A stretch of 64,000 nt of DNA from Leucoraja erinacea (Eukaryota). A model generated the notes under the pieces. The model had not been told where the DNA came from. It saw only the letters and a program-made list of their open reading frames with translations, and did no database searches. Below are positions 179 through 52,482 of this stretch, in pieces. Within the stretch, counting starts at the first letter, position 1, and the number at the start of each line of letters is the position of its first letter. A program made the translations under genes and the position numbers. The stretch lies in contig NC_073393.1 of the NCBI RefSeq assembly GCF_028641065.1, positions 19,964,001 through 20,028,000 of the forward strand. The letters are read 5' to 3'.

Positions 179-484
179 CTGTCCCTTCTCCTCTGAAGAT
201 TGTATCTGTTCGATCTAGAAATGCTGCGACTGATTTCCTGAAAATGCAGTGCAGAACGGCTGCCTTTTACCCGAAAGAATTTAATCTCACCTGGCATACA
301 AATGGTTCCGTCATCCAATCTGGATTTCGGCATGAACAAAGATCAACGGCAGACGGATTGTATGAAGTTATCAGCTTTTTAGAGGAGAAACGGACAGTCA
401 AAGAAGGAACCGTTTACACATGTAAAATTATTCACCGTTCTATGCTAACTCCAGCAACTGCCAACTACACGGTTCCTCGTGCAG
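179..484 (+). CDS. Copy A C1-set Ig domain exon
   Basis: Acceptor ttacttag|CT, donor GCAG|gtaacg; C1 motifs MQC..AAFYPKEFNLTW, DGLYEVISFL, YTCKIIH. Confidence 0.9.
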
Positions 485-3400
485 GTAACGTGTTCCACGG
501 ATAGTATAATGGATAGTCCACTGAATAATAATATTCATAGTAAAAATAAAATGTGAGGATTTTTAAAAGACCGAATTTTCTGCAGCAAATGTATTCACCT
601 AGAACTTGTGCAATTTTCCTATTTTCTGCCAACGTAGATGGACGCTGTACAGTCCATCCAGCCTATGTTGCTTCCCAGAAAAAGTCCATCAATACCCTTC
701 CCGCAATCGATCGCGCACCTGTACCCTTTCACGTGATCTACAAGTCCACTCTGATGCCCCCACAAACATCACACCTTCCCGAGAAATAATGTAAAAATAA
801 TCAATTAACTCACCAAGCAGTTCCTTGGTAAAATATCAGAGAATGTGCAATGTACATGCAGACAGTTCCCGAAGCCAGGCCTGAGCTCGGATCACCACTA
901 ACTCGGTGAAGGTTTTCTTTTTGTTTGTTTATGGCTGAAATTGGTAACCAATTGCAACACAGACACAGAGTCTACCTAAAATTAATCTGCGCAAATACCG
1001 AAATATGAAGTACTCCTCCTCCAATTTGTCTGTGGCCTCACTCTGGTAACGCAGGATGCCCAGAACAAAAAGGTTAGTGTGCGAATGGGAAAGGGATTCT
1101 AAATAGTTAGCAACCCGGAAATCCAATAGGCCTCGGCAGGAGATAGCTCCAGCGTATTTGACGATGTATTCGAGACGGAGTTTTGAACAAGCACTGTACC
1201 ATGTAACCAACACCAATGTAGCCAGTAGCTGTGGCTGATGTGAGTGTCTAGCTGCACCTTTAACTTGGAGAAAGTGAGAGGAGTCAAAAGAGAAATTGTT
1301 GAGGGTGACGACAAATTCCTCTAGACACAGGGGATTGTCCGTAGAAAAAAATATCTTTGGTCTCTTTTCAAGGAAGAAACGGAGGCCATGATATTTTCGT
1401 GTTCCTAACCACTCTACACCTACTACAGATGTCGGAGGACATTGGGAGAAAGCAGGAGAATGGGGTTAGGAGAGAGAGATAGATCAGCCATGATTGAATT
1501 GCGGAGTGGACATGATGGGCCGAATTGCCTAAATCTACTATTGCTTCTGACCTTAATACCCCTCCCCTGCCCTCCCATGCACAGCTCCTCCCAACCCCTC
1601 CTCTCTGAAGCCCTCTGGCCCCCACGCCCGAGCCTGCTTCTGCACCTCTGCTCGTCCCTGACCCCAGCCCTCATCCCTGTCGTGTTTTCACCACCCCCTG
1701 ACCTCCTTAACAATACAGAGCGGCCAGTCCTCGACAATTAGTGCTACATCCGACACCCGTGCAGAACTCAAATTCACCACTTATTTCCACCCTGCCCTCA
1801 AATTCACCTGGACGATGTCTGATACCGCTCTATGCTTCCCTTCTCTCTCTCCATTCACCCACCAGCCTCCGCAATCCTAAACATCAACTTCGGACATTTC
1901 CGTCGCCTCCAACCTGATCCCATTATTAATCACATATTTACCTTCCCGCCTTTTGCAGACTGTTCCTCCACAACTATGGTTCATTCATCCCTTTAAACCC
2001 AGACCACCCCAACCGGAGGTACTTTTCTCTACAACTGCAGGAGATGTAACACCTGTCCCCGTGCCTCCTTCCTCGTCTCTATGCACGGACTCCGACATTC
2101 TCTCCATGTTGGACAGTAGTTCACATGCACCTTCTCTAATCGCATCTACTGCATCCGATGGTCTGGATGCGGGGTCCTGTACAATAGTGTGAAAAGCTGT
2201 GGATTCTGCGACCATTTCGCTGAGCATGCTCAGACCTACTGGATCTCCCAGTAGCTAAGTATTTTAATTCCCCTTTTCATACCTATACTGACCTCTCTGT
2301 CCGAGGACCTGCCTTACACAGAGTGGCAAAAGCAAATTCGACGATTTCACTTGTCTAGCATACAAGCCAGCGGCATGAACGTTGAATTCTCTCATTTTAG
2401 CAATGTCCATAAGCACTCACCTCCCTCTCCTCTCCCTCGCTCCCCACCCCCCATTTGCCCCTTTTTCCTCTATGGGATTTACGTCCCACAATTTGCAACA
2501 ATGTATCCTTCTTGGGATAACGTCGGCCTATCAGGGAACCTCCCTGCGTGGGGCCATATAGTGCTAGTCCCGATCCCTCGTGTTTTTTTTTTTTTGCTCC
2601 ACCCCCCCCCCCCCCCCCCCCCCCACCCCACTATCAGCCTGAAGAAGTGCCCCGACACAAAAAAAGTCTCCTCTCCATTTTCTCCAATTATGCTGCCTGA
2701 CCCGCAGAGTTACGCCAGCATTTTCAGTCCATCTATGAGCACTAACTTGTTGGCTGTTGCATTAATTGGGGACGGTTAGTGGGGAGAAGACGTCTATAAT
2801 GAGTCATCCTGGCCAGCGTCAGTGACATTAACATCTCCTTCGAGATTTGGTGAACAGAATATATCCAAATTAATGTATTATGTTCTACAATTTTCTGTTT
2901 CCTGACGGTCAATATCCTACAAGGTTCACTTAAGATCTATTTATTTCACTCGTAATCGCGCTATAAATCGATATTGTTGGCTTTTTCCGCATTCCAGGCG
3001 GTTCTGGTGAAATCCAATGAGTGAACATTTGAAATATCTTGCTATGTTTCCCGCAAAGTCTACTTTAAAATAACGTAATTAAATATAAACATTTGGTAAT
3101 CGGTTTAACTTCCCACAGCTGTCGAGGGTTTATCTGCTTCTCTAATCGCTGGAAGTATCGGTGGTGCAGTATTAATTTTACTGTTCATCGTTATCGTCGT
3201 GATAACAATTATATATAGAGGTATGTTTCTCAACCATTTTTTAACATTATCACCCCAGTATAATATTATAATATAATCGTATTAGTAATTAGACGATTCT
3301 CTTGATAATAGAGGAAATGAAACATTTACACGGGCAAAATTTTTGATTATAGTAAACAGCACCGACTTAACGAAGATATTCAATTTTGCATTTGACTAAT

Positions 3401-6265
3401 GTTTGATGATCACATATTTTGAATTTTTGTATTATTTCAACACATCACATAGCAGCCAGCATTTAATTGTACCTAATGGTCAAGATCTGAACATATGTGA
3501 ATTTTGTGATAAAAATGTGTTTCATTGGTTGAAAGATAGCGTAGAGAAACAGGCCTTTTAACCCATCGATTCCACGTCGGCCATCGATCATCCGTTCACA
3601 CTAGCTCTACGTTAACCTACTTTCGCATCCACTCAATACACAGTGGCGGCAATTTACAGAGGTCCATTAACCCGCAAATCCGCACATTCTTGGGATGTGG
3701 GAGTATACTGGAGCAACGGATGAAACCCACGTGGTCACCGGGAGAACGTGCCTCAAACTCCGTATTTACCTGCTGCGCCACTGTGTCGTTCAACATTTTG
3801 GAAAATGCGTGGCACAAACAACGTGGTTTAAGCCTTCATTCATTTGTAGTGAAGCCGAATAAAGTGAAACTCTATCGGGCAATTATCACATGATATTACG
3901 TTCTTGGCGTGCAAAAAAAAACACCATGTCGCACGGCCATTTATCACTATTTCATTTTTCCGAGCAGGTGCAAAGAAGCGTACAGTAAATACAAATCGGC
4001 CACAAAGTTGGGTAAGGCTAATTTAATATGTGACTATTCCATTTGTGAAAGACAGGATTGTGCCTTTGTTGAAACCAAGCCGTTTTAATGAGGACCACGT
4101 CTTATTCTGTTTGAACGTATTCCCAATCAGTGAAGTTCACAGTACCCCACACAATGGAGGACATAAAGAACAATACAAAATGCATTTACAGGAGTTCGCA
4201 TTGATTATAAATATCATATACATTGTTTACACCAGATGTAGTGAAAGGAATATTTTCATTGCATCTTACTGCTTCTTGTCCAGCCACAGGCGAGATTCCG
4301 GAGTACTGGAGAGTGGCCATGTTGTTTCTTTGCTTAAGAAGGGAAGTAGAGGGAATCCAAGGCTCAACCAGTTGTGTCTAAATATAGGTCGTTTAACCAC
4401 ACCTTAGTGGTTGGGAACCAATTGGAAATACTTCAAGAGAGGATCTACTGACATTGGGAAGAGAATGAACGAATTAGCGATAGCCAGCACAGCCTAACAC
4501 GTTTTACTGATGTAATTGAGTTTTCTGAACAGATGACAAAGGAGATCGATGAAGGCAGGGCAGTAGCTGCTGCAAACACGAATCTAAGGAAGCTTAGTTC
4601 CTTTAAAGATAAAGTTCCTCATGATAGGTTGATCCAAAATATCAAGATATCCAGGATCCACTGTAATTTGGTGATATTAATTCAGAACTGGCTTCTTCAG
4701 AGCGACAGAGGTTTGTCGAAGGAAGATCTGCCTGAAGGTCTGTGATCAGTGGAATTCCACAGGGACCTCTGTTATTTGTGATATATATAAATGACGTAGA
4801 CATAAATCTAGATGGGTTGTTGAGTAAATTTGCTGAACAACAGAACAGGGGGAGTTGCAGACAGCCAGGAGGGTTGTCGGAAGATACAGAGGGTTATTGA
4901 TCATCGACAGAAGTGGGTGGAGAAATGGCAGATGGAGCATGATGGAGTATAACCCGAGCTGTCTGAGCTGTTGCACTTTAGGATGGCGCATGTAAGGATA
5001 AACTCAAAATGCTAAAGTGAATTGATGTGCAGGGAGGTCATAGAGTCCAAGTTATAGCTCACTGAAGACTGCAGCACGAAGAGATAGGCTGGTAAAGATG
5101 GCGTATGATATTGTTGCCTTCATTGCTACGGCCGTGATTATAAAAATCAAGAAACCATGATACAGCTCTATAAGACTATGGTTAAGCCCCATTTGGAGTT
5201 TTCCGTGCGGTTCTGGTAGCCTCATAACAGAACGCATTTGGGGAGGGTGCAGAAGAGGTTTGCCAGATGCGCTTGGATTAGAGAGGCGCAAGTGACCGAA
5301 GGGGTTGTATAAACTTGGATAGATTTTTTTTCTGGCAATTCGGAGCTTGAGGGCAGAATTGATAGACTGAAGCATAGATAGGGTAGACCGGCAGAACCTT
5401 TTCCACATAATAGAAATGTCCAATGCTAGAGGGCATAGCTATAAGGTGTGTGGGAGAATGTTTGATGGAGGTATACGGGGTAAGTTCTTTACATAGCGAT
5501 TGTTGTTTGCCTGGAAGGCATTACCGGTTGTTGTGGTGGAGGCAGACACGACAGTGGCGTTTAAGAGGCATTTAGATGGACATCTGCAGAAGGAAAAAAG
5601 GGATATGGATCATGTACAGATAGATGAGATCGGTTTAACATGGCATCGTGTTCAGCACAAACATTTTGGGCTGAAGGGCGCGTTCAGATGCTGTCCTATG
5701 TTCCATATTATGTACTGTTATCATTTTTTGATGTGTTCAGTTGCGACTGTTTTCCCCACAGTCGATTGGACTCTGGAAATTGGTCTTCATGCAATAAGTC
5801 ATTCGAGACAAAACGTAAAATAATTGTCCCTCGTTTATTCTTGCCAGTGCATTCCACGAGAAGGCTTCATCTGTATTATAACTAATCCTAAAATGTTCAT
5901 GAATTTCCAGGAAGAAGGTGAGAACGTTAGCCGTAATCCGATGTACGCCCATTTGGATTTTGTCCGCTCCAAAGAATATGAGAAACCTGAAGAGCACGCG
6001 AATAGACCAGTGTATGCAAAGGTACAGTTCGTTTCACGCTTTTACTCTACACATCTGAGAATACAGATACGTGTTACTTGGAGAGATTTGTCGTTTTCTT
6101 GTCCAATTAACAATAGCAAACATTTGTGCACAGATCGCAATTATGGCTGCTGCTGATACCCAACTGGCGTACGCATCCTTGAACACGTCAAGCTCCAAAA
6201 ATAATTTGAAACGGCAACAAAAAGAAATAAGTGTAATATATAGCGGGGTGAAAAATAACAACTAA
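179..6265 (+). CDS. IgSF receptor copy A (5'-partial): C1-TM-cytoplasmic ITIM tail; SIRP-like/VJ-C1 inhibitory receptor
   Basis: Exons 179-484 (C1), 3119-3220 (TM), 3968-4011, 5911-6021, 6134-6265, all AG/GT bounded and in compatible phases (1,1,1,0,0). Tail contains PMYAHL, PVYAKI, LAYASL, VIYSGV. Leader and V exons lie upstream of the window. Confidence 0.85.
1560..2730 (+). mobile_element. Degenerate Penelope-like element remnants in intron 3 (paralogous copies ~20045-21240 and ~47400-48180)
   Basis: HPALKFTWTISDT-like RT remnant, GIY-YIG-region remnant resembling 57580-57906, decayed terminal-repeat sequence near 2630-2730. Boundaries approximate. Confidence 0.6.
3119..3220 (+). CDS. Copy A transmembrane exon
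   Basis: cccacag|CT...AGAG|gtatgt; AVEGLSASLIAGSIGGAVLILLFIVIVVITIIYR, uncharged hydrophobic helix. Confidence 0.85.
3526..3786 (-). mobile_element. tRNA-derived V-SINE (HE1-like) fragment in intron 4 (paralogous copies ~22035-22295 and ~48888-49150)
   Basis: Reverse strand carries the ctcccacatcccaaga core shared with the SINEs at 42.4 and 43.5 kb, plus a CR1-like 3' tail. Confidence 0.6.
3968..4011 (+). CDS. Copy A cytoplasmic exon 1
   Basis: gagcag|GT...TGG|gtaagg; GAKKRTVNTNRPQSW, basic juxtamembrane segment. Confidence 0.75.
4280..5720 (+). mobile_element. Old, heavily decayed CR1 LINE fragment in intron 5 (present in all three gene copies)
   Basis: RT remnants TKEIDEGRAV..DKVPHDRLI, SGIPQ..LLFVIYIND, VVEADT..AFKRHLD; many stops and frameshifts. 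Confidence 0.75.
5911..6021 (+). CDS. Copy A cytoplasmic exon 2 (Tyr motifs 1-2)
   Basis: ttccag|GAA...AAG|gtacag; EEGENVSRNPMYAHLDFVRSKEYEKPEEHANRPVYAK. Confidence 0.8.
6134..6265 (+). CDS. Copy A terminal cytoplasmic exon (two ITIMs)
   Basis: gtgcacag|ATC; IAIMAAADTQLAYASLNTSSSKNNLKRQQKEISVIYSGVKNNN*; LAYASL and VIYSGV fit (I/V/L/S)xYxx(L/V/I). Confidence 0.8.
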   Translation: MAIMAAADTQLAYASLNTSSSKNNLKRQQKEISVIYSGVKNNN

Positions 6266-17075: not shown

Positions 17076-17130
17076 ATGTTTCTGAAAGTGTCACTTTGGA
17101 CGATGTATTTCCTTGGAATTGTGAATGCGG
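17076..17130 (+). CDS. Copy B signal-peptide exon
   Basis: MFLKVSLWTMYFLGIVNA, donor GCGG|gtaaac, phase 1. Confidence 0.75.
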
Positions 17131-20100
17131 GTAAACTAGGGCTTCTATTGTTTTTTATTTATGTGTCTTCAAATTAGGCAGATATGATGTTGTGCCTTAT
17201 AATGTCATGCCGAATTGTCCATAAAGTCATTGCTGTCGTATGAGTTCTGGGAAGGAGGGTAATTTACGAAACCTTTACGAGGACACAAAAAGCGGGCATG
17301 ATTATTATCTGGGCTTCCATTGTAAATATTTGGGCTGAGTGCAATAAGATTTTTGCCTGCAGTGTTACATTTCCATTGCTGTATATCAATGACTAAACTG
17401 GATTTGCACCATCTATTGACAGCTGCTGAGAACAGGTCGGGCAAGACGATATCGAATGTTGTTCAGAATACGTTGATCAGTGGCATAAACTTTACCTGTC
17501 GGTGTTCCTTCCCCTTCAATGTAAATCTGTCAATCCTGGAGGTTTTCTGGTGGAAAGGTGGAAATAAAGACTTCCTGAAAGAAGATAGCAGGAAAATCTT
17601 CACTATACGGGCAGGAGCCCCCTACCTGCACCTGCTGAATGTCACGGTCTCGGACGCCGGAACATACCATTGTCTTGCAAAACAAGCGGGCCGACCGGTT
17701 GGGACGGGAACAGGAGAGCAACTGATCGTATATGGTGAGTGAGCGGTACTTTAGTTGCTAGACAAAAGTGCTGGAGAAACTCAGCAGGTGCAGCAGCATC
17801 TATGGAGCGAAGGAAATAGGCAACGTTTCGGCCCGAAACGTTGCCTATTTCCTTCGCTCCATTGATGTTGCTGCACCCGCTGAGTTTCTCCAGCACTTTT
17901 GTATACCGTCGATTTTCCAGGATCTGCAGTTCCTTCTTAGGTACTTTAGTTGCAGCTCGAATTTGAATTTTGCTTCTCAGAAGTCTTTAATCCAGAATAC
18001 AAATGTGAATAACGTTGGAAAATTATTCGAGATTGGTTCGTTTGAAAATATAGGTCAGAGGGCATGACAGCAATTATATTTGAGTTGATGTATATTGAAG
18101 GTAGTGAGTGTAAGTTGAACAAATACAACGGTTTCAATTTGACACCGAACGCCGAGGCGGGATCCTACTGATGTTTTCCTAATGATAATGTTATCAACAT
18201 ATAATGCTGTGTATTGAAAGAGCGAGGTTTTTACTTCCACAAAATTATTGAAATATAAATTATATTTCTTGCGCCGAATTAGAAAAACAATAAATGTTAG
18301 TCAAAGCATTCTCTGTAAGACAGTCCAAGTCTGCAACTGTTTATGACTGCTTATATTGGGGAGTTGAAGTATTCACAACAGTACTGTGCCTTTGAAGAGT
18401 TCAAACTTGAAAGTTGATTCGCGCATGTTAGCACAAGAAACAAGTATGCAAATTAGTGCTTTTTTCTTACATTAAATGTCAAGGGAATGCGTCGGGGGGG
18501 GGGGGGGGGGGGGGGAGTCCATTGCGATGAATTACACCTTCATCTGGCTCCCGATTTTAAAATGATGATGGAATTAAGTAACGTTGGAATAAATGCGATT
18601 AGATGATGTAATCGACTCTTCCCCTTTCTTTTAATTCTATTCCTCTTTACCTAGCTGTCCCTTCTCCTCTGAAGATTGTATCTGTTCGATCTAGAAATGC
18701 TGCGACTGATTTCCTGAAAATGCAGTGCAGAACAGCTGCCTTTTACCCGAAAGAATTTAATCTCACCTGGCATAGAAATGGTTCCGTCATCCAATCTGGA
18801 TTTCGGCATGAACAAAGATCAACGGCAGACGGGTTGTATGAAGTTATCAGCTTTTTAGAGGAGAAACGGCCAGTCAAAGAAGGAACCGTTTACACATGTA
18901 AAATTATTCACCGTTCTATGCTAACTCCAGCAACTGCCAACTACACGGTTCCTCGTGCAGGTAACGTGTTCCACGGATAGTATAATGGATAGTCCACTGA
19001 ATAATAATATTCATAGTAAAAATAAAATGTGAGGATTTTTAAAAGACCGAATTTTCTGCAGCAAATGTATTCACCTAGAACTTGTGCAATTTTCCTATTT
19101 TCTGCCAACGTAGATGGACGCTGTACAGTCCATCCAGCCTATGTTGCTTCCCAGAAAAAGTCCATCAATACCCTTCCCGCAATCGATCGCGCACCTGTAA
19201 CCTATTCCCTTTCACGTGATCTACAAGTCCACTCTGATGCCCCCACAAACATCACACCTTCCCGAGAAATAATGTAAAAATAATCAATTAACTCACCAAG
19301 CAGTTCCTTGGTAAAATATCAGAGAATGTGGAATGTACATGCAGACAGTTCCCGAAGCCAGGCCTGAGCTCCGATCACCACTAACTCGGTGAAGGTTTTC
19401 TTTTTGTTTGTTTATGGCTGAAATTGGTAACCAATTGCAACACAGACACAGAGTCTACCTAAAATTAATCTGCGCAAATACCGAAATAAGAAGTACTCCT
19501 CCTCCAATTTGTCTGTGGCCTCACTCTGGTAACGCAGGATGCCCAGAACAAAAAGGTTAGTGTGCGAATGGGAAAGGGATTCTAAATAGTTAGCAAGGGC
19601 GAAATCCAATAGGCCTCGGCAGGAAGTAGCTCCAGCGTATTTGACGATGTATTCGAGACGGAGTTTTGAACAAGCACTGTACCATGTAACCAACACAAAT
19701 GTAGCCAGTAGCTGTGGCTGATGTGAGTGTCTAGCTGCACCTTTAACTTGGAGAAAGTGAGAGGAGTCAAAAGAGAAATTGTTGAGGGTGACGATAAATT
19801 CCTCTAGACACAGGGGATTGTTCGTAGAAAAAAATATCTTTGGTCTCTTTTCAAGGAAGAAACGGAGGCCATGATATTTTCGTGTTCCTAACCACTCTAC
19901 ACCTACTACAGATGTCGGAGGACATTGGGAGAAAGCAGGAGAATGGGGTTAGGAGGGAGAGATAGATCAGCCATGATTGAATTGCGGAGTGGACATGATG
20001 GGCCGAATTGCCTAAATCTACTATTGCTTATGACCTTAATACCCCTCCCCTGCCCTCCCATGCACAGCTCCTCCCAACCCCTCCTCTCTGAAGCCCACTG

Positions 20101-23100
20101 GCCCCCACGCCCGAGCCTGCTTCTGCACCTCTGCTCGTCCCTGACCACAGCCCTCATCCCTGTCGTGTTTTCACCACCCCCTGACCTCCTTAACAATACA
20201 GAGCGGCCAGTCCTCGACAATTAGTGCTACATCCTACACCCGTGGAGAACTCAAATTCACCACTTATTTGCACCCTGCCCTCAAATTCACCTGGACTATC
20301 TCTGATACCGTTCTATGCTTCCCTTCTCTCTCTCTCCATTCACCCACCAGCCTCCGCAATCCTAAACATCAACTTCGGACAGTTCCGTCGCCTCTAACCT
20401 GATCCCACTATTAATCACAAATTTAAATCTCCATGCCTCTCCGCCTTTTGCAGACTGTTCCTCCACAACTATGGTTCATTCATCCCTTTAAACCCAGACC
20501 ACCCCAACCGGAGGTACTTTTCTCTACAACTGCAGGAGATGTAACACCTATCCCCGTGCCTCCTTCCTCGCCTCTATGCACGGACTCCGACATTCTCTCC
20601 ATGTTGGACAGTAGTTCACATGCACCTTCTCTAATCGCATCTACTGCATCCGATGGTCTGGATGCGGGGTCCTGTACAATAGTGTGAAAAGCTGTGGATT
20701 CTGCGACCATTTCGCTGAGCATGCTCAGACCTACTGGATCTCCCAATAGCTAAGTATTTTAATTCCCCTTTTCATACCTATACTGACCTCTCTGTCCGAG
20801 GACCTGCCTTACACAGAGTGGCAAAAGCAAATTCGACGATTTCACTTGTCTAGCATACAAGCCAGCGGCATGAACGTTGAATTCTCTCATTTTAGCAATG
20901 TCCATAAGCACTCACCTCCCTCTCCTCTCCCTCGCTCCCCCCCCCCCCCCCCCCCCCACCCCCCATTTGCCCCTTTTTCCTCTATGGGATTTACGTCCCA
21001 CAATTTGCAACAATGTATCCTTCTTGGGATAACGTCGGCCTATCAGGGAACCTCCCTGCGTGGGGCCATATAGTGCTAGTCCCGATCCCTCGTGTTTTTT
21101 TATTGCTCCACCACCCCCCCCCCCCCCCCCCCCCCCCCCCTATCAGCCTGAAGAAGTGCCCCGACACAAAAAAAGTCTCCTCTCCAATTTCTCCAATTAT
21201 GCTGCCTGACCCGTAGAGTTACGCCAGCATTTTCAGTCCATCTATGAGCACTAACTTGTTGGCTGTTGCATTAATTGGGGACGGTTAGTGGGGAGAAGAC
21301 GTCTATAATGAGTCATCCGGGCCAGCGTCAGTGACATTAACATCTCCTTCGAGATTTGGTGAGCAGAATATATCCAAATTAATGTATTATGTTCTACAAT
21401 TTTCTGTTTCCTGACGGTCAATATCCCACAAGATTCAGTTAAGATCTATTTCACTTGTAATCGCGCTATAAATCGATAATGTTGGCTTTTTCCGCATTCC
21501 ACGCGGTTCTGGTGAAATCCAATGAGTGAACATTTGAAATATCTTGCTATGTTTCCCGCAAAGTCTACTTTAAAATAACGTAATTAAATATAAACATTTG
21601 GTAATCGGTTTAACTTCCCACAGCTGTCGAGGGTTTATCTGCTTCTCTAATCGCTGGAAGTATCGGTGGTGCAGTATTAATTTTAATGTTCATCGTTATC
21701 GTCGTGATGACAATTATATATAGAGGTATGTTTCTCAACCATTTTTTAACATTATCACCCCAGTATAATATTATAACATAATCGTATTGGTAATTACACG
21801 ATTCTCTTGATAATAGAGGAAATGAAACATTTACACGGCCAAAATGTTTGATTATAGTAAACAGCACCGACTTAACGAAGATATTCAATTTTGCATTTGA
21901 CTACTGTTTGATGATCACATATTTTGAATTCTATGTATTATTTCAACACATCATCACATAGCAGCCAGCATGTAATTGTACCTAATGGTCAAGATCTGAA
22001 CATATGTGAATTTTGTGATAAAAATGTGTTCCATTGGTTGAAAGATAGCGCAGAGAAACAGGCCTTTTAACCCATCGCTTCCACGCCGGCCATCGATCAT
22101 CCGTTCACACTAGCTCTACGTTAACCTACTTTCGCAGCCACTCAATACACAGTGGCGGCAATTTACAGAGGTCCATTAACCCGCAAATCCGCACATTCTT
22201 GGGATGTGGGAGTATACTGGAGCAACGGATGAAACCCACGTGGTCACAGGGAGAACGTGCCTCAAACTCCGTATTTACCTGCTGCTCCACTGTGTCGTTC
22301 AACATTTTGGAAAATGCGTGGCACAAACAACGTGGTTTAAGCCTTTATTCATATGTAGTGAAGCCGAATAAAGTGAAACTCTATCGGGCAATTATCACAT
22401 GATATTACGTTCTTGGCGTGCAAAAAAAACACCATGTCGCACGGCCATTTATCACTATTTCCTTTTTTCCGAGCAGGTGCAAAGAAGCGTACAGTAAATA
22501 CAAATCGGACACAAAGTTGGGTAAGGCTAATTTAATATGTGACTATTCCATTTGTGAAGGACAGGATTGTGCCTTTGTTGAAACCAAGCCGTTTTAATGA
22601 GGACCACGTCTTATTCTGTTTGAACGTATTCCCAATCAGTGAAGTTCACAGTACCCTACACAATGGAGGACATAAAGAACAATACAAAATGCATTTACAG
22701 GATTTCGCATTGATTATGAATATCATATATATTGTTTACACCAGATGTAGTGAAAGGAATATTTTCATTGCATCTTACTGTATCTTGTCCAGCCACAGGC
22801 GAGATTCCGGAGTACTGGAGAGTGGCCATGTTGTTTCTTTGCTTAATAAGGGAAGTAGAGGGAATCCAAGGCTCAACCAGTTGTGGCTAAATATAGGTCG
22901 TTTAACCACACCTTAGTGGTTGGTAACCAATTGGAAATACTTCTTCAAGAGAGGATCTACTGACATTAGGAAGAGAATGAACGAATTAGCGACAACCAGC
23001 GCAGCCTAACACGTTTTACTGATGTAATTGTGTTTTCTGAACAGATGACAAAGGAGATCGATGAAGGCAGGGCAGTAGCTGCTGCAAACACGAATCTAAG

Positions 23101-26100
23101 GAAGCTTAGTTCCTTTAAAGATAAAGTTCCTCATGATAGGTTGATCCAAAAATATCAAGATATACAGGATCCACTGTAATTTGGTGATATTAATTCAGAA
23201 CTGGCTTCTTCAGAGCGACAGAGGTTTGTCGAAGGAAGATCTGCCTGAAGGTCTGTGATCAGTGGAATTCCACAGGAACCTCTGTTATTTGTGATATATA
23301 TAAATGACGTAGACATAAATCTAGATGGGTTGTTGAGTAGATTTGCTGAACAACAGAACAGGGGGAGTTGCAGACAGCGAGGAGGGTTGTCGGAAGATAC
23401 AGAGGGTTATTTATCATCGACAGAAGTGGGTGGAGAAATGGCAGCAGATGGAGCATGATGGAGTATAACACGAGCTGTCTGAGCTGTTTCACTTTAACAT
23501 AGAAAGTAGGTGCGAGAGTAGACCACCAGGTCCGTCGAGCCCGCACCGCCATTCGCTCATGGCTGAACACTAAACAGACACACTTACCCACAAACAGTAG
23601 CGACAAGACACAGAACACAAGACACTACCCTCCCCTTTATACCGCTATCACCCCTCTCCACCCCAAGAACCTCGTGATCTCCTGGGGGAGGCAAAAAACC
23701 GGATAAAAACCCAGGTCCAATTCGGGAAAAAAAATCCGGGAAATTCCTCTCCGACCCCAATCCAGGCGATCGACACTTGTCCAGGAGATCACTCAGGTCT
23801 TACTATACTAACCATACCTAGGTCCATATCCCTGCCCTCTCCCCGTAGCCCCTTATCCCCTTGGCAGCTAAAAAACCATCTATTTTAGTCTTAAATATAT
23901 TTAAAGTTTCTGCTTCCACTGCTCCCTGGGGCAGTGAATTCCATAAATTAACCACCCTCTGGGTGAAGAAGTTCTTCCTCATCTCAGTTTTAAAAGAGCC
24001 CCCCCTTATTCTGCAACTATGTCCCCTAGTTCTAGTTTCCCCGATCATTGGGAACATCCTCGGTGCATCCACCCGATCAAGGCCCCTCACGATCTTATAT
24101 GTTTCAATGAGAGCGCCTCTCATTCTTCTAAACTCCAAAGAGTAGAGTTCCAGCCTACTTAACCTTTCCTCATATGTCAATCCCCTCATTGCAGGAATTA
24201 ATCTTGTAAACCTTCGCTGCACTGCCTCCAGGGCTAGTACATCCTTTCTTAAGTATGGACCCCAGAACTGTACACAGTATTCCAAATGTGGTCTCACTAA
24301 TACTGTGTACAGCTGCAGCAAGACCTCCGTGTTTTTATACTCAATCCCCCTAGCAATAAAGGCCAAAACTCCATTGGCCTTCCTGATTGCTTGCTGCACC
24401 TGCATACTAACTTTCAGTGATTCATGTACTAATACCCCTAGATCCCTTTGCGTTGCATTACAACTCAGCTCCTCCTCATTTAGAAAATAACTTGCCCTTT
24501 CATTTTTTCTCCCAAAGTGAATGACTTCACATTTATTAGTATTAAATTTCATCTGCCAAGTTGTTGCCCACTCACCTAGCTTATCTATATCCTTTTGCAG
24601 ACTCTTCCTATCCTCCTCATCCCCTACTTTTCCTCCCATTTTTGTATCGTCCGCAAATTTTGATATATTACACTTGGTTCCCTCCTCCAAATCATTTATA
24701 TAAATTGTGAACAACTGGGGTCCCAGCACCGACCCTTGCGGAACCCCGCTAGTTACCGGTTGCCATCCCGAGTATGAACCATTTATCCCCACTCTCTGCT
24801 TCCTATTTGTTAGCCAATCCTCTACCCATGCTAATATATTACCCCCAATCCCATAATTTTTTATTTTTAGCAATAGTCTCTTATGTGGCACCTTGTCAAA
24901 AGCCTTTTGGAAGTCCAAGTATACCACATCCACCGGTTCTCCTTTATCCACCCGGGTTGTTACTTCCTCAAAGAATTCGAGCAGATTCGTTAAACAGGAC
25001 TTCCCCTTCACAAAACCATGCTGGTTCTGTCCGATGAAGTCATGTTTATCCAAGTGCCCCGTTAGTGTTTCCTTAATAATTGTCTCTAACATTTTACCCA
25101 CCACCGATGTTAGACTAACTGGTCTATAGTTACCCGCCTTCTGTTTACTTCCTTTTTTAAATATAGGTGTTACATTGGCCATTTTCCAATCCACTGGGAC
25201 CGTTCCTGCCTCCAGGGAGTTTTGGAAAATTATCACCAATGCATCCACAATCCCCACCGCTATCTCCCTCAAGACCATTGGATGTAATCCATCAGGCCCA
25301 GGGGATTTATCCTCCTTCAGTCTCATTAATTTCCCTAATACCACCTCCTTGGTGATCTTAATAGTATTTAGCTCCTCCATTCCTACCGCCCCCTGTTTAT
25401 CCAGCGTTGGAATATTTTTTGTGTCTTCTATGGTGAAGACTGATACAAAATACTCGTTTAATGCCTTTGCCATTTCCATGTTCCCCACCAACAACTCTCC
25501 AGTCTCACCCTCCAATGGACCAACGTTCACCTTAGCCACCCTTTTTCTTTTTATATAGCTATAAAAACTCTTACTATTAGTTTTTATGTTGTTCGCTAAA
25601 TTCCTTTCATAGTCTATTTTCCCCGTCTTAATTCATCTCTTAGTTATTTTTTGCTGACCTCTAAATGCTTCCCAATCCCTTACCCTCCCACTATCTCTGG
25701 CTACCTTATATGCCCTTGCCTTCAGCCGAATACTATCCTTTATAGTTTTACTGAGCCATGGCTGACTGTTCTTACCCTTACCCCTTTTTTTCTTCATAGG
25801 AATAAATTTTTCTTGAAGGTTATACAGTATACCCTTAAACGTACACCACTGCTCATGTACCGTCTTATTCTTGAGTCTGCTATCCCAGTCAACTTTGATC
25901 AGCTCAGTCCTCATACCTTCATAATCCCCCTTATTTAGACTAAGCACCCTAGCCTGAGTTTCAACCTGCTCCCCTTCTATTTGAATATGGAATTCGACCA
26001 TATTGTGGTCACTTGTTCCCAACGAGTCCCTAACTATGACATTTTTAATTAATCCTGCTTCATTACACAGGAACAGATCCAAGATTGCCTCCCCCCTTGT

Positions 26101-28125
26101 CGGTTCTGTGACATACTGTTCTAGGAACCCGTCTCTAATACATTCTATAAACTCTTCCTCTAGTCTACCCTGCCCAGTTTGGTTTGCCCAATTAATATGA
26201 AAATTGAAGTCCCCCATGATTACAGTAGTTCCCTTTTTACATGCGTCAACTATTTGCAGATTTATGTTCTGACTAACAGCGTCACAGCTATTTGGAGGTC
26301 TATAAATTACACCCACTAGTGTTTTTTTCCCCTTATTATTCTCTATCTGTACCCAAGTTGTTTCACTATCCTGATCCTTCAACGCAATATCCTTCCTCTC
26401 TATTGCCGTTATTCCCTCTCTTATTAAAAGGGCCACCCCTCCTCCCTTTCTTTCCTGTCTATCTTTCCTAATTGTCGAGTACCCCTCTATATTTAACTCC
26501 CAGTCCTGATCCCCTTGCAGCCATGTCTCCGTAATGGCCACGATATCATAACTATATATACTTAATTGCACCGTTAATTCATTTATCTTATTACGAATAC
26601 TCCGTGCATTGAGATAAAGCACTTTCAGATGATTTTTACTACCCTTCCTTTCCGGTTTTGCCCCTTTTACATCTAAAGCTTTATCTTCACACATTCTGTC
26701 TCCTGTCACATTTTGACTTTCCGCTTCCCCACTGATACCCTGCTCTATTTCCTCTACCCCTGCCGTTATTACCCCCCTTGATACCTCCCCCCCGTTACTT
26801 AGTTTAAAGACCTCTCTACTGCCCTAGTTATATGATTTGCCAGGACCCCAGTCCCAGCACCGTTCAGGTGAAGTCCGTCCTTACAGAACAGATCCCCCCT
26901 GTCCCAGTTTAGGATGGCGCATGTAAGGATAACCTCAAAATGCTAAAGTGAATTGATGTGCAGGGAGGTCACAGAGTCCAAGTTATAGCTCACTGAAGAC
27001 TGCAGCACGAAGAGATAGGCTGGTAAAGATGGCGTATCATATGGTTACCTTCATTGCTACGGCCGTGATTATAAAAATCAAGAAACCATGATACAACTCT
27101 ATAAGACTATGGTTAAGCCCCATTTGGAGTTTTCCGTGCGGTTCTCGAAGCCTCATAACAGAACGCATTTGGGGAAGGTGCAGAAGAGGTTTACCAGATG
27201 CGCTTGGATTAGAGAGGCGCAAGTGACCGAAGGGGTTGTATAAACTTGGATAGTTTTTTTTCTGGCAATTCGGTGCTTAAGGGCAGAATTGATAGAATGA
27301 AGCATAGATGGGGTAGACCGGCAGAACCTTTTCCACATAATAGAAATGTCCAATGCTAGAGGGCATAGCTATAAGGTGTGTGGAAGAATGTTTGATGGAG
27401 GTCGACACGACAATGGCGTTTAAGAGGCATTTAGATGGACATCTGCAGAAGGAAAGGGATATGGATCATGTACAGATAGATGAGATCGGTTTAACATGGC
27501 ATCGTGTTCAACACAAACATTTTGGACTGAAGGGCGCGTTCAGATGCTGTCCTATGTTCCATATTATGTACTGTTATCATTTTTTGATCTGTTCAGTTGC
27601 GACTATTTTCCCCACAGTCGATTGGACTCTGGAAATTGGTCTTCATGCAATAAGTCACTCGAGACAAAACGTAAAATAATTGTCCCTCGTTTATTCTTGC
27701 CAGTGCATTCCACGAGAAGGCTTCATCTGTATTATAACTAATCCTAAAATGTTCATGAGTTTCCAGGAAGAAGGTGAGAACGTTAGCCATAATCCGATGT
27801 ACGCCCATTTGGATTTTGTCCGCTCCAAAGAATATGAGAAACCTGAAGAGCACGCGAAGAGCCCAGTGTATGCAAAGGTACAGTTCGTTTCACGCTTTTA
27901 CTCTACACATCTGAGAATACAGATACGTGTTGTTACTTGGAGAGATTTGTCGTTTTCTTGTCCAATTAACCTATAGCAAACATTTGTGCGCAGATCGCAA
28001 TTATGGCTGCTGCTGATACCCAACTGGCGTACGCATCCTTGAACACGTCAAGCTCCAAAAATAATTTGAAACGGCAACATAAAGAAATAAGTGTAATATA
28101 TAGCGGGGTGAAAAATAACAACTAA
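17076..28125 (+). CDS. IgSF receptor copy B, complete: leader-V(J)-C1-TM-ITIM tail, 353 aa; SIRP-like/VJ-C1 inhibitory receptor
   Basis: Exons 17076-17130, 17423-17734, 18655-18960, 21624-21725, 22477-22520, 27767-27877, 27994-28125 give a 1062-nt open frame with GT-AG boundaries throughout. Confidence 0.88.
17423..17734 (+). CDS. Copy B V-set Ig domain exon with J-like G strand
   Basis: ttgacag|CT...TATG|gtgagt; B-strand FTC, C-strand VFWWK, LNVTVSDAGTYHC, G strand GTGTGEQLIVY. Confidence 0.9.
17759..17939. mobile_element. Palindromic Penelope-like terminal-repeat insertion (181 bp)
   Basis: ~70-bp inverted arms centred at 17832; 14-bp TSD GGTACTTTAGTTGC (17745-17758 / 17940-17953); empty site in copy C at ~45892. 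Arms resemble the PLE terminus at 57390-57480. Confidence 0.85.
18655..18960 (+). CDS. Copy B C1 exon
   Basis: Near-identical to 179-484 with the same splice sites. Confidence 0.9.
21624..21725 (+). CDS. Copy B TM exon
   Basis: AVEGLSASLIAGSIGGAVLILMFIVIVVMTIIYR. Confidence 0.85.
22477..22520 (+). CDS. Copy B cytoplasmic exon 1
   Basis: GAKKRTVNTNRTQSW, gagcag| and |gtaagg. Confidence 0.75.
23497..26907 (-). mobile_element. Young CR1 LINE (end of ORF1 plus full ORF2 with one in-frame stop) in copy B intron 5
   Basis: APE endonuclease ORF 25633-26709 and RT ORF 23818-25539 (FADD) in the same frame; ORF1 esterase end DGLHLN near 26860-26880; TSD TTTA; empty site in copy A at ~4977. Confidence 0.92.
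27767..27877 (+). CDS. Copy B cytoplasmic exon 2
   Basis: EEGENVSHNPMYAHLDFVRSKEYEKPEEHAKSPVYAK. Confidence 0.8.
27994..28125 (+). CDS. Copy B terminal cytoplasmic exon (two ITIMs)
   Basis: IAIMAAADTQLAYASL...EISVIYSGVKNNN*. Confidence 0.8.
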   Translation: MAIMAAADTQLAYASLNTSSSKNNLKRQHKEISVIYSGVKNNN

Positions 28126-45220: not shown

Positions 45221-45275
45221 ATGTTTCTGAAAGTGTCACCTTGGACGATGTATTTCCTTGGAATTTTTAATGCGG
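45221..45275 (+). CDS. Copy C signal-peptide exon
   Basis: MFLKVSPWTMYFLGIFNA, donor GCGG|gtaaat. Confidence 0.7.
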
Positions 45276-46426
45276 GTAAATTAGGGCTTCTATTGTTTTT
45301 TTATTTATGGGTCTTTAAATTACGCAGATATGATAGTTGTACCTTATAATGTCATGCCGAATTGTCCATTATGTCTTTGCTGTTGTGTGAGTTCTGGAAA
45401 GGAGTGTAATTTACGAAACCTTTACGAGGACACAAAAAGCGGGCATAATAATTCGGTTCAATTCATTGTACGTTTTTGGGCTGAGTGCAATAAGATTTTT
45501 GCCTGCAGTGTTACATTTCCACTGCTGTATATCAATGACTAAACTGGATTGTGCACCATCTATTGACAGCTGCTGAGAACAGGTCGGGCAAGACGATATC
45601 GAATGTTGTTCAGAATACGGTGATCAGTGGCATAAATTTTACCTGTCGGTGTCCCTTCCCCTTCAATGTAAATCTGTCAAACCTGGAGGTTTTCTGGTGG
45701 AAAGATGGAAATAAAGGTTTCCTGAAAGAAGGTAGCAGGAAAGTCTTCACTATACGGACAGGAGGCGCCTACCTTCACCTGCTAAATGTCACGGTCTCGG
45801 ACGCCGGAACATACTATTGTCTTGCAAAACAAGCGGGCCGACCGGTTTGGAAGGAAACAAGAGAGCAACTGATCGTATATGGTGAGCGAACGGTACTTTA
45901 GTTGCAGCTCGAATTTCGGTTTGCTTCACAAAAGTCTTTAATCCAGAATACAAATGTGCAAAACGGTGGGACATTATTCTGGATTGATTCGTTTGAAAAT
46001 ATAGTTCAGAGGGCATGACAGGGATGATATTTGAGTTGATGTATATTGAAGGTAGTGAGTGGAAGATGAATAAATACAACGTTTCAATTGGACACTGAAT
46101 GCCGAGGCGGGGATCCTCCAGATGTTTTCCTAATGATGTTATCAACATATAATCCTGTGAATTGAAAGAGCGAGGTTTTTACTTCCACAAAATAATTGAA
46201 ATATAAATTATATTTCTTGCGCCGAATTAGAGAAACAATGAATGTTAGTGAAAGCATCAAAGCATTCTCTGTAAGCCAGTCAAAGTCTGCAACTGTTTAT
46301 GTGTCACAGTACTGTGCCTTTAAAGAGTTGAAACTTGAAAGTTGATTCGCGCATGTTAGCACAAGAAACAAGTGTGCAAATTAGTGCTTTTTTCTTAAAT
46401 TAAATGTCAAGGGAATGCATGTCAAG

Positions 46427-46484
<58 letters not shown>

Positions 46485-49400
46485 CAATCGCGATGAATTA
46501 CACCTTCATCTGGCTCCCGATTTAAAAATTAGGATGGAGTTAAGTAGCGTTGGAACAAATGCCATTGGATGATGTAATCGACTTTTCCCCTTTTCATTCT
46601 ATTCCTCTTTACCTAGCTGTCCCTTCTCCTCTGAAGATTGTATCCGTTCGATCTAGAAATACTGCGACTCATTTCCTGAAAATGCAGTGCAGAACGGCTG
46701 CCTTTTACCCGAAAGAATTTAATCTCACCTGGCATAGAAATGGTTCCGTCATCCAATCTGGATTTCGGCATGAACAAAGTTCAACGGCAGACGGATTGTA
46801 TGAAGTTATCAGCTTTTTAGAGGAGAAACGGGCAGTCAAAGAAGGAACCGTTTACACATGTAAAATTATTCACCGTTCTATGCTAACTCCAGCAACTGCC
46901 AACTACACGGTTCCTCATGAAGGTAAAGTGTTGCACGGATAGCAGGAAGTAGCCCCAGCGTAGTGGTCGATGTATTCGAGAACGAGTTCGGGGGTAACGC
47001 CAGCGGGTTCTATTTTGTACTGAAATAAAACTCCACTGCACAATGTAACAAACAAATTGGTAGCCAGTAGCTGTGACTGATGTGACTGTCCAGCTGCAAC
47101 TTTAACTTGGAGAAAGTGAGAGGAGTCAAAAGAGAAGTTGTTGAGGGTGACGACAAATTCCTCTAGGCACAGGAGATTGTTCATAGAGAAAAATATATTT
47201 GGTCTCGTTTCAAGGAAGAAACAGAGGCCATGAGATTGTCGTGCTCCTAACCACTCTACTCCTACTACAGATGTCAGACGTCATGGGGAGAAGGCAAGAG
47301 AATGGGGTTAGGAGGGCGAGATAGATCAGCCATGATTTAATGGTTCAGTGGACATGATCGGCCGAATTCCCATTTCTACTATTCCTTATGACCTTAATAC
47401 CGCTCCCCTGCCCGCCCATGCACAGCTCCTCCCAACCCCTCCTCTCTGAAGCCCTCTGTCTCCCACGCCCGCAGCCTGCTTCTGCACCTCTGCTCGTCCC
47501 TGCCTCCGGCCCTCACCTCTGTCGTGTTTTCACCACCCCCTGACCTCCTTTGCGATACAGAGCGGCCAGTCCTCGACAATAAATGCTACATCCTACACCC
47601 GTGCAGAACTCAAATTCCCACTTATTCCCACCCTGCCCTCAAATTTACCTGGACTATCTCTGATACCGCTCTATGCTTCCTTCCTCTCTCTCTCCATTCA
47701 CCCACCAGCCACCGCAATCCTAAACATCATCTTCGGACATTTCCGTCGCCCCCAACCTCATCCCATTATTAACCACATATGTACATTTCCATGCATTTCC
47801 GCTTTTTGCAGACTGTTCCTCCACACCTATGGTTCATTCATCCATTTAAACCCAGACCACCCCAGCCCGATGTACTTTTCTCTACAGCTGCAGGAGATGT
47901 AACACCTGTCCCTGTAGCTCCTTCCTCGCCTCTATGCACGAACTCCGACAGTCTCTCCAGGTTGGACAGTAGTTCACACGCACCTTCCCAGTAGCTAAAT
48001 ATTTTAATTGCCCTTTTCATTTCTACACTGACCTTTTTGTCCGAGGACCTGCCTTGCACAGAGTGGCGAAAGCAAATTCGACGAACAGCACCTCATATTT
48101 CACTTGTATAGAATACAAGCCAGCGGCATGAACGTTAAATTCACAAATTTTAGTAATGTTCATAAGCACTCACCTCCAGCGTCAGTAACATTAACATCTC
48201 CTTCGAGATTTGGTGAACAGAATATATCTAAATTAATGTATTATCGTCCACAATTTTCTGTTTAATAACCGTCAATATCCCACAAGGTTCACTTAAGATC
48301 TATTTATTTCACTCGTAATCGCGCCATATATTGAAATTGTTGGCTTTTGCCGCATTCCAGGCGGTTCTGGTGAAATCCAATGAGTGAACATTTGAAATAT
48401 CTTGATTTGTATTCCGCAAAGTCTACTTTGAAACAACTTAATAAAACATAAACATTTGTGTCATCGGTTTAACAGCTGTCGAGGGTTTATCTGCTCTAAT
48501 CGCTGGAAGTATCCGAGGTGCAGTATTCATTTTAATATTCATCGTTATCATCGTGATGGCACATATATATATAGGTATGTTTCTCAACCATTTTATAACA
48601 TTATCATCCCAGTATAATATTATAGTATTGGTAATTACACGATCTTGATAATAGAGAAAATGAAACATTTGCACGGGGAAAATTTATGATTATAGTATAA
48701 TAATTTATAGTAAACAGCACCGACTTAACGAAGATATTCAATTTTGCATGTGACTAATGTTTGATGATCACATATTTTGAATTCTATGTATTATTTCAAC
48801 ACATCATCACATAGCAGCCAGCATTTAATTGTACCTATTGGTCAAGATCTGAACATCTGTGAATTTTGTGATACAAATGTGTTTCATTGGTTGAAAGCTA
48901 GCGCAGAGCAACAGGCCTTCTAACCCATCGATTCCACGCCGGCCATCGATCATCCGTTCACACTAGCTCTACGTTAACCTACTTTCGCAGCCACTCAATA
49001 CACAGTGGCGGCAATTTACAGAGGTCAATTAACCCACAAATCCGCACATTCTTGGGATGTGGGAGTATACTGGAGCAAGGGATGAAACCCACGTGGTCAC
49101 AGGGAGAACGTGCCCCAAACTCCGCATTTACCTGCAACACCACTGTGTCGTCCAACATTTTGGAAAAAACGTGGCACAAACAACGTGGTTTAAGCCTTCA
49201 TTCATATGTAGTGAAGCCGTATATAGTGAAACTCTATCGTGCAATTATGACATGATATTACGTTTTTGGCGTGCAAAAAAAACCCACCATGTCGCACGGC
49301 CATTTATCACTATTTTATTTTTCCGACCAGGTGCAAAGAAGCGTACAGTAAATACAAATCGGACACAAAGTCGGGTAAGGCCAATTTAATATATGACTAT

Positions 49401-52196: not shown

Positions 52197-52238
52197 GGGA
52201 AACCTGAAGAGCACATGGAGAGTCCAGTGTATGCAAAG
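52128..52238 (+). CDS. Copy C cytoplasmic exon 2 with Tyr>His and premature stop
   Basis: EEGENVNRNPIHAHLDLVRCKE*; ATGTAC>ATCCAC and TAT>TAA relative to copies A/B. Confidence 0.75.
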
Positions 52239-52350
52239 GTAAAGTTGGTTTCACGCTTTCACTCAACACATCTGAGAACACAGATACGTCTTATTCGGAG
52301 AAATTTGTAATTTTCTTGTCCAATTAACAATAGGAAACATTTGTGCACAG

Positions 52351-52482
52351 ATCGCAATTATGGCTGCTGCTGATACCCAACTGGCGTACGCTTCCTTGAA
52401 CACGTCAAGTTCCAAAAAGAAATTGAAACGGCAACATAAAGAAATAAGTGTAATATATAGCGGGGTGAAAAATAACAACTAA
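52351..52482 (+). other. Copy C ITIM exon: intact reading frame but downstream of the stop (3' UTR unless exon 6 is skipped)
   Basis: IAIMAAADTQLAYASLNTSSSKKKLKRQHKEISVIYSGVKNNN*, acceptor intact. Confidence 0.7.

Follow-up and report, generated by a model that had tools for sequence, protein, structure and literature searches.

Several non-rearranging VJ or VJ-C1 genes have been proposed as relatives of the antigen receptors, namely NKp30, PRARP and UrIg (PMC10751288), UrIg2 (PMC12227049), NITR (bioRxiv 10.1101/2021.06.11.448072; PMC7916673) and SIRP (PMC2785349; PMC3716694), and linking such genes to antigen-receptor origin is already an established idea. The SIRP architecture and the transmembrane (TM) lysine by which SIRP-beta recruits DAP12 are described in PMC12206702. 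The origins of the SIRPs remain unknown according to PMC9652883, and whether an antigen-receptor precursor or an antigen receptor gave rise to them cannot be told (PMC2785349). In this work we describe a receptor gene, termed copy B, of the little skate Leucoraja erinacea. It lies in a stretch of 64,000 nucleotides (NC_073393.1, 19,964,001-20,028,000, assembly GCF_028641065.1, forward strand), hereafter called the window, whose own positions are used for all features inside it. Copy B is no lone relic but one of a 30-member family of germline-joined receptors present in rays, sharks and chimaera, and it is highly probable that it represents an inhibitory member of a paired-receptor family of cartilaginous fish with the order leader, VJ, C1, TM segment and tyrosine-motif tail. 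An earlier note on this DNA, which had drawn attention to copy B, missed this main fact of a 30-gene family of paired activating and inhibitory receptors.

The window holds three tandem copies of the gene (A, B and C). Copy B consists of seven exons with AG/GT borders and phases 1,1,1,1,0,0 that join to a single open frame of 353 amino acids in the order leader-VJ-C1-TM-tail, its splicing being predicted from the DNA. The exons are as follows:

17076-17130, plus strand: leader exon of 55 nt, phase 1; the N-termini of homologues P0001-P0003 match
17423-17734, plus strand: single VJ exon with Cys46, Trp61, D-x-G-x-Y-x-Cys102, the G strand GTGEQLIV, an extra Cys44 and a short C-D connection
18655-18960, plus strand: C1-set exon with Cys147, FYP, Trp161 and Cys204
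21624-21725, plus strand: TM exon encoding a helix without charged residue
22477-22520, plus strand: first cytoplasmic exon with a basic juxtamembrane segment, present in all three window copies
27767-27877, plus strand: tail exon with the degenerate pair Y285 (NPMYAHL) and Y308 (PVYAK/I), also Y296
27994-28125, plus strand: last exon with a pair of ITIMs (immunoreceptor tyrosine-based inhibitory motifs), Y323 (LAYASL) and Y346 (VIYSGV), followed by the stop codon

Another acceptor for the last exon, at position 27977, is out of frame. A six-frame scan with hidden Markov models (HMMs) revealed no further C1 exon between the C1 and TM exons of copy B, in agreement with the predicted splicing of V to a single C1 exon claimed in the earlier note. 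Likewise, no recombination signal sequence (RSS) was found beside the V exon, as that note had reported; the scan of all 64 kb gave two degenerate matches, at 34509 and 57281, neither of them near it.

The V exon contains its own G strand (GTGTGEQLIVY), and this motif and all others named in the earlier note are present where it had placed them. The J-like GxG pattern held for copy B but not for its two tandem neighbours, since copies A and C have KETRE at the position of GTGTG. GxG is preceded by N or T, where the J consensus has F. The V domain of copy B scored below the Pfam V-set cut-off (22.7 versus 26 bits), and AlphaFold models of this domain and of a sawfish homologue (mean pLDDT 83 and 84) contain no regular C' or C'' strands. 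Fold searches with V alone returned generic Ig matches only (best Z 12.1, with contactin, sidekick, VNAR and BTLA within 1 Z). The extra Cys44, two residues ahead of the canonical V cysteine, is also present in sawfish and ray orthologues, without a partner being visible, and the V-x-Q-x-P pattern of the family is missing from the A strand. The second Ig exon is of the C1-set (Pfam PF07654, 37.8 bits, cut-off 21) and shows FYP, a Cys-to-Trp spacing of 13 residues and CxIxH, which are near the C1 hallmarks, including xVxH, given in PMC2785349.

Four main tyrosines of the tail (285, 308, 323 and 346) are spaced by 23, 15 and 23 residues. In human SIRP-alpha the corresponding spacing is roughly 24/17/26. 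The earlier note had described a four-tyrosine, SIRP-alpha-style tail; the spacing was as it had given it, but a fifth tyrosine, Tyr296 (KEYEKP), had been omitted, and judged by the ITIM consensus only LAYASL and VIYSGV fit, PMYAHL and PVYAKI having proline at position Y-2.

Searches of the skate genome matched V 29 times and C1 31 times, each time on contig C17, where 30 genes with V and C1 exons form three clusters (13.6, 15.92-16.33 and 19.89-20.10 Mb). No additional family genes were detected in the gaps and flanks of C17 that were read. With a chimaera member as query, 61 of 65 genome matches were again located on C17, and two little-skate proteins in NCBI match two of the 30 genes. In all 30 the G strand lies within the V exon, the pattern GxGxx[LIV]xV occurring in 22; RSS-like matches, both degenerate, were found near two of the V exons. 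A single C1 exon is present in 29 genes. In gene g14 there is an additional, partial C1 exon without the F-strand cysteine (C17:16242120-16242335); no other gene of the 30 is arranged in a V-C1-C1-like way.

Related animals possess these V and C1 exons as well. In a profile search of 1.84 billion proteins the matches listed were the best 150 by summed score (about 115 bits and above), so that single-domain relatives from bony vertebrates may be hidden. Of 64 profile matches 61 are family members: 60 are named as ray, shark or Callorhinchus (chimaera), and one has an incomplete organism name. The three remaining matches look like titin or hemicentin, as judged from the sequences of two of them. 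Of the stored models containing V, 79 of 83 have the V-C1 architecture (isoforms counted). Their automatic NCBI names are SIRP-, NCR3LG1 (B7-H6)-, tapasin-, CD276-, MHC- or IgL-like. No description of the skate VJ-C1 family was found in the literature searched, which excluded some key papers and the supplements of chondrichthyan genome papers.

The 30 genes fall into two signalling classes. In ten the TM segment carries an arginine close to its outer end, while the TM segments of the other 20 are neutral. A profile of the tail unit found this unit in 14 genes, i.e. in 13 of the 20 neutral-TM genes and in copy C, where it lies behind a stop codon. None of the nine other Arg-TM genes has the tyrosine-pair exon, and reversed peptides used as control gave no matches. 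Six near-identical pairs combine opposite modules (g13/14, g15/16, g19/21, g20/22, g27/28 and g24/25; V pN, the proportion of nonsynonymous differences, 0.004-0.064). Copy B and its neighbour copy C are among the opposite pairs, copy C having a Gly-to-Arg change, loss of the first tyrosine and a stop codon. At the protein level V has changed more than C1 (pN 0.0345 versus 0.0183; Fisher p 0.0004; 11 disjoint pairs). The Arg-versus-ITIM pattern defines PIR-A/PIR-B, KLRI and Ly49 (PMC3210942). Given these near-identical pairs of opposite module, copy B is likely to be an inhibitory paired receptor that works like PIR-B or like SIRP-alpha, the 'don't-eat-me' receptor of mammals.

Two further arrangements of TM and tail exons were noted. 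Gene g03, which is not counted among the ten with arginine, has two tandem candidate TM exons, one neutral and one with arginine (C17:15959251 and 15957919), and alternative splicing could give both signalling signs to one ectodomain. The divergent members g00 (C17:13.62 Mb) and g12 (16.18 Mb) have a neutral TM segment, and no tyrosine unit was found in them; the shark proteins P0027 and P0233 have similar TM segments and long tails without tyrosine. This suggests that the four may form a conserved non-ITIM subfamily.

The other family features of the window, and an insertion in copy B, are the following:

179-6265, plus strand: copy A, with C1 at 179-484, TM at 3119-3220 and tail exons at 3968-4011, 5911-6021 and 6134-6265
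23497-26898, minus strand: LINE-type (long interspersed nuclear element) insertion of about 3.4 kb in the last-but-one intron of copy B, with minus-strand open reading frames (ORFs) of 396 and 604 amino acids
41926-42093, plus strand: V exon of the family preserved as a remnant that lacks the F and G strands (tblastn E 1.8e-8; family HMM 21.7 bits)
45221-52482, plus strand: copy C, with leader at 45221-45275, V at 45570-45881, C1 at 46617-46922 and TM at 48476-48574
49331-49374, 52128-52238 and 52351-52482, plus strand: tail exons of copy C, the last being the ITIM exon; stop codon TAA at 52194-52196

The leader and V exons of copy A lie just upstream of the window, and its inhibitory-type tail is intact and the same as that of copy B. 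In copy C the TM glycine is replaced by arginine (SIRGAV) and the first tail tyrosine by histidine. Its stop codon falls after 22 codons of the second tail exon, and the intact ITIM exon behind it, 97% identical to that of copy B, is predicted to be untranslated. Copy C is thus a predicted activating twin and looks like an inhibitory-to-activating switch caught early. The insertion in copy B is absent from copy A, as seen from the gap in the self-alignment, and is taken by us to be of the LINE/CR1 type. It looks young, with long endonuclease and reverse-transcriptase ORFs, and a 3005-nt contig of sequencing run X6 matches it with 18 differences.

From this organization we infer a mode of action in which copy B would be expressed in leukocytes. 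Its V domain would bind a ligand on the cell surface, probably a marker of self open to mimicry by pathogens. The Y323/Y346 pair would be phosphorylated by Src-family kinases, and on it SHP-1/SHP-2, both tandem-SH2 phosphatases, would dock to damp leukocyte activation. The Arg-TM sisters, with nearly the same ectodomain but without the tyrosine tail, would signal in the opposite direction via an adaptor carrying immunoreceptor tyrosine-based activation motifs (ITAMs). This adaptor would be of the FcR-gamma/CD3-zeta type.

A number of observations weigh against this interpretation: (i) copy B is a gene predicted from DNA; (ii) the TM exons were chosen by hydrophobicity and splice signals; (iii) only two of the four main tail tyrosines of copy B fit the ITIM consensus; (iv) within the 10-22 kb searched, no tail unit was found for seven of the 20 neutral-TM genes, and some of them may be non-signalling or broken; (v) copy C, instead of an activator, could be a pseudogene in decay; (vi) pooled V pN/pS (nonsynonymous over synonymous differences) is 0.69, i.e. 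not above 1, so that diversifying selection is unsupported; (vii) in a quick V tree the family members did not fall together on one side of a branch (three changes, long branches).

Among known systems the SIRPs resemble the family in several respects: a non-rearranging VJ-type V is followed by C1, paired receptors are clustered, and the inhibitory member has four main tail tyrosines and two ITIMs. Unlike the SIRPs, the skate family has one C1 domain, a short V without regular C'/C'' strands and 30 genes, and its activators use an arginine in the outer TM segment in place of the DAP12-binding lysine of SIRP-beta. It is not located beside NSFL1C, although its chromosome shares paralogues with the NSFL1C chromosome. 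The NITRs of ray-finned fish likewise have germline VJ exons in a large cluster and include forms with ITIM as well as forms with a charged TM segment, but their second domain is an I domain with six cysteines whereas that of the skate family is a two-cysteine C1; a NITR paper cites no evidence of NITRs in cartilaginous fish (bioRxiv 10.1101/2021.06.11.448072). PIR-A/PIR-B, LILR, KLRI and Ly49 share near-identical ligand-binding domains combined with either an Arg TM segment without ITIM or a neutral one with ITIMs. As their ectodomains are of the C2-type Ig or lectin kind, this is a likeness of logic, not of descent.

In UrIg/UrIg2, NKp30 (NCR3) and PRARP, V and J are likewise in one exon, followed by C1 in UrIg and also in PRARP. 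Those genes are MHC- or Ig/TCR-linked, whereas the skate family is flanked by AMFR and an NDRG gene; UrIg furthermore has at least three C1 domains as opposed to one, and the family C1 lies apart from the UrIg2-like rows of our trees. B7-H6 (NCR3LG1) and tapasin-related protein share the V-C1 ectodomain, and some family members carry these NCBI names, but separate skate genes on contigs C18 and C28, which we read as B7-H6-like and tapasin-related, group apart. In Ig and TCR genes V and J are split and flanked by RSS, in contrast to the skate genes with V and J in one exon and no good RSS.

Comparison with known sequences and structures did not single out one of these groups. For the chimaera member P0170, the first PDB matches were SIRP-alpha with 52.5 bits (two stretches added together), UrIg2 with 51.1 and a light chain with 48.5. 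When a single V-C1 stretch is taken, the light chain scored higher than SIRP-alpha (48.3 versus 30.8 bits). The motif SGAGTELSV of SIRP-alpha aligns with the family G strand. When the family profile was compared with the PDB, antibodies, UrIg2 and SIRP ranked together. The best match of the V-C1 model was B7-H6 (Z 15.7, root-mean-square deviation (rmsd) 3.6, 183 aligned residues), tied within 1 Z with four other rows; SIRP-gamma was 41st (Z 13.3, rmsd 5.7), in a ranking that depends on the predicted elbow angle, and the Foldseek list consists mostly of antibody chains. Language-model features placed the family nearest to SIRP-alpha clusters (0.97). Overall, light chains, SIRP, UrIg2 and B7-H6 match the family about equally weakly.

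Trees of C1 sequences, which included 18 and 11 of the 30 skate genes and no amniote SIRP or PRARP, placed the family on one side of a branch (support 99/93 with 36 rows, 97/90 with 15 rows). It was separated from skate IgH, IgL, TCR-like, B7-H6-like and tapasin-like genes, all outgroup labels being our own reading, and from two other V-C1 genes. The family C1 falls outside the Ig/TCR/UrIg2 branch (96/94 in one tree, 96/86 in the other). Neither a second C1 exon nor, in these trees, a grouping with a characterised family was found. Lungfish proteins with automatic SIRP-like names joined the family C1 in both trees, once at 91/73 and once at 49/65. Two of them, P0123 and P0160, are multi-C1 proteins, the latter with an arginine near the outer TM end, and they are possible bony-vertebrate relatives of the family, with weak tree support. 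In two other skate genes (C32:14.37 Mb and C13:5.57 Mb) a C1 exon likewise follows a joined VJ exon; they lie outside the family and are candidates for PRARP, NKp30-like or UrIg genes; an atlas search with the C32 V domain led to CTLA-4/PD-1-like V clusters without a name. A cluster of V-C1 and multi-C1 genes on C18 (41.24-41.52 Mb, and 20.19 Mb) was read as B7-H6-like from its motifs. Proteins similar to its multi-C1 genes occur in coelacanth, turtle and tortoise under SIRP-like names or none.

On C17 the flanks of the family contain AMFR, an NDRG gene (15.75 Mb) and genes for a septin, an amino-acid transporter, glutathione S-transferases (GST) and a helix-hairpin-helix protein. We take flanking genes to be SEPT7-like, SLC38A7/8, OSGIN, DNAAF1 and EEPD1, and presumably AMFR, NDRG4, SLC38A8 and DNAAF1 are located on human 16q; a PDB search with the OSGIN-like ORF gave no match. 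A GST gene is present on the distal side of both large clusters (C17:16.36-16.41 and 20.11-20.18 Mb), and one cluster has an EEPD1-like, the other a septin-7-like neighbour. EEPD1 and septin 7 are adjacent in human. There is thus a hint that the two large clusters were split by rearrangement.

The human SIRP cluster at 20p13 lies beside NSFL1C. A synteny of this kind, which the earlier note had considered, was not found, NSFL1C being on C21 and the family on C17. The NSFL1C-like exon on C21 shares 34 of 42 residues with human p47 and is adjoined by FAM110; a paralogue on C4 is 61% identical to it. In the 300 kb around the C21 gene no V or C1 exon scored above 11.3 bits, whereas this HMM gave 16-57 bits for the C1 exons of other families, and a motif search revealed no FKBP or syntenin landmarks nearby. 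None of the 150 scored C1 matches (of 220 candidates) is on C21. NDRG genes are present on C4, C17 and C21, and BRK-domain genes on C4, C17, C21, C3 and C39. NHR2 genes were found on C4, C21 and C50 but not on C17, which departs from a simple C4/C17/C21 pattern except in the case that C50 is a piece not yet placed. Two of the three gene families tested therefore fit C17 and C21 as duplicated sister chromosomes.

With these data the alternatives can be weighed. If the family were the true SIRP of cartilaginous fish, its cluster would have moved away from NSFL1C, it would have, or have kept, one C1 domain instead of two, and the ligand would be CD47. A search with the Pfam V-set_CD47 model gave no match, its controls included. 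SIRP-alpha is indeed the top PDB match of P0170 over two stretches and has the nearest feature clusters; both systems combine a four-tyrosine tail with paired activators, and the 20 other C1 loci read included none that we recognised as a SIRP candidate. Yet the single V-C1 stretch favours the light chain over SIRP-alpha, and membership fails because of domain count (one C1 as opposed to two), adaptor residue (outer-TM arginine in place of the DAP12-recruiting lysine of SIRP-beta) and position (neither a V nor a C1 exon was found within the 300 kb read around NSFL1C). We regard this alternative as unlikely. Of the one-C1 SIRP-like gene proposed in the earlier note, the likeness in working was borne out by PDB match, features and paired-tyrosine tail, while membership among the SIRPs was not; by its predicted features the family works like SIRP-alpha without being filed there by sequence. 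Very unlikely, too, is an expanded gene of the PRARP or B7-H6 (NCR3LG1) type. PRARP is described as a V-C1 protein with ITIM and an immunoreceptor tyrosine-based switch motif (ITSM), and B7-H6 is the best, though tied, structural match of the V-C1 model; but the separate B7-H6-like V-C1 genes of the skate on C18 and the V-C1 genes on C32 and C13 are all outside the family clade, and B7-H6 is a ligand not known to have an ITIM tail.

The earlier note had named a pre-RAG VJ-C1 lineage as the other possibility. In its strict form this would make the family an extant relative of the very VJ-C1 gene split by the RAG transposon. The joined VJ exon and C1 in light-chain-like order, the short leader intron, the light chains and UrIg2 among the top PDB sequence matches and the antibody chains in the Foldseek list are in line with this proposal. 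It is nevertheless very improbable, given the position of C1 outside the Ig/TCR/UrIg2 branch, a V without regular C'/C'' strands and N or T, not F, before GxG, and because light chains, SIRP, UrIg2 and B7-H6 match about equally weakly; UrIg2, which is linked to the Ig/TCR complex, is the better published candidate (PMC12227049). A special link of the family to the pre-RAG receptor is thus not supported. Finally, copy B might be a recent, non-expressed duplicate: the V, C1 and TM exons of copies A-C are 91-99% alike, the 3.4-kb insertion is located in an intron of copy B, and the homologue matches listed include no database protein for it. With seven open exons, intact splice sites, a C1 exon better conserved than the neighbouring introns (2.9% versus 5.9-7.3% difference between copies B and C) and the same V and C1 exons in related animals, this is quite unlikely. 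Sequencing runs X1-X4 cover the introns and behave as genomic DNA, and two runs presumed to be RNA covered repeats only, which speaks neither for nor against expression.

The preferred reading of copy B as an inhibitory member of a cartilaginous-fish paired-receptor family is compatible with a shared history with SIRP. As C17 and C21 share paralogues, the family could be a sister of SIRP produced by whole-genome duplication (ohnologue). We tentatively consider it possible that it is a lost ohnologue of SIRP, cartilaginous fish having kept and expanded the 16q copy and amniotes the chromosome-20 copy as SIRP. A VJ-C1 paired receptor would then have been present on the pre-duplication chromosome that gave rise to human 8q, 16q and 20. 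If human 14q11, which carries TCR alpha/delta, completes this paralogon as a fourth member, the receptors split by RAG could by extension derive from the same ancestral locus, an improbable proposal that would rival the proto-MHC model. The family may represent not the ancestor of antibodies but an old sister group of the SIRPs.

While the signalling logic of the family is in itself ordinary, it offers candidates for leukocyte receptors of the inhibitory and the activating kind in cartilaginous fish, hidden so far under at least five misleading automatic names. As a large V-C1 family of rays, sharks and chimaera on a chromosome that has paralogues in common with that of NSFL1C, it makes the question of SIRP origin testable by phylogeny and synteny. 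If the ohnologue relationship is true, SIRP-type 'self' checkpoints would predate the second vertebrate genome duplication.

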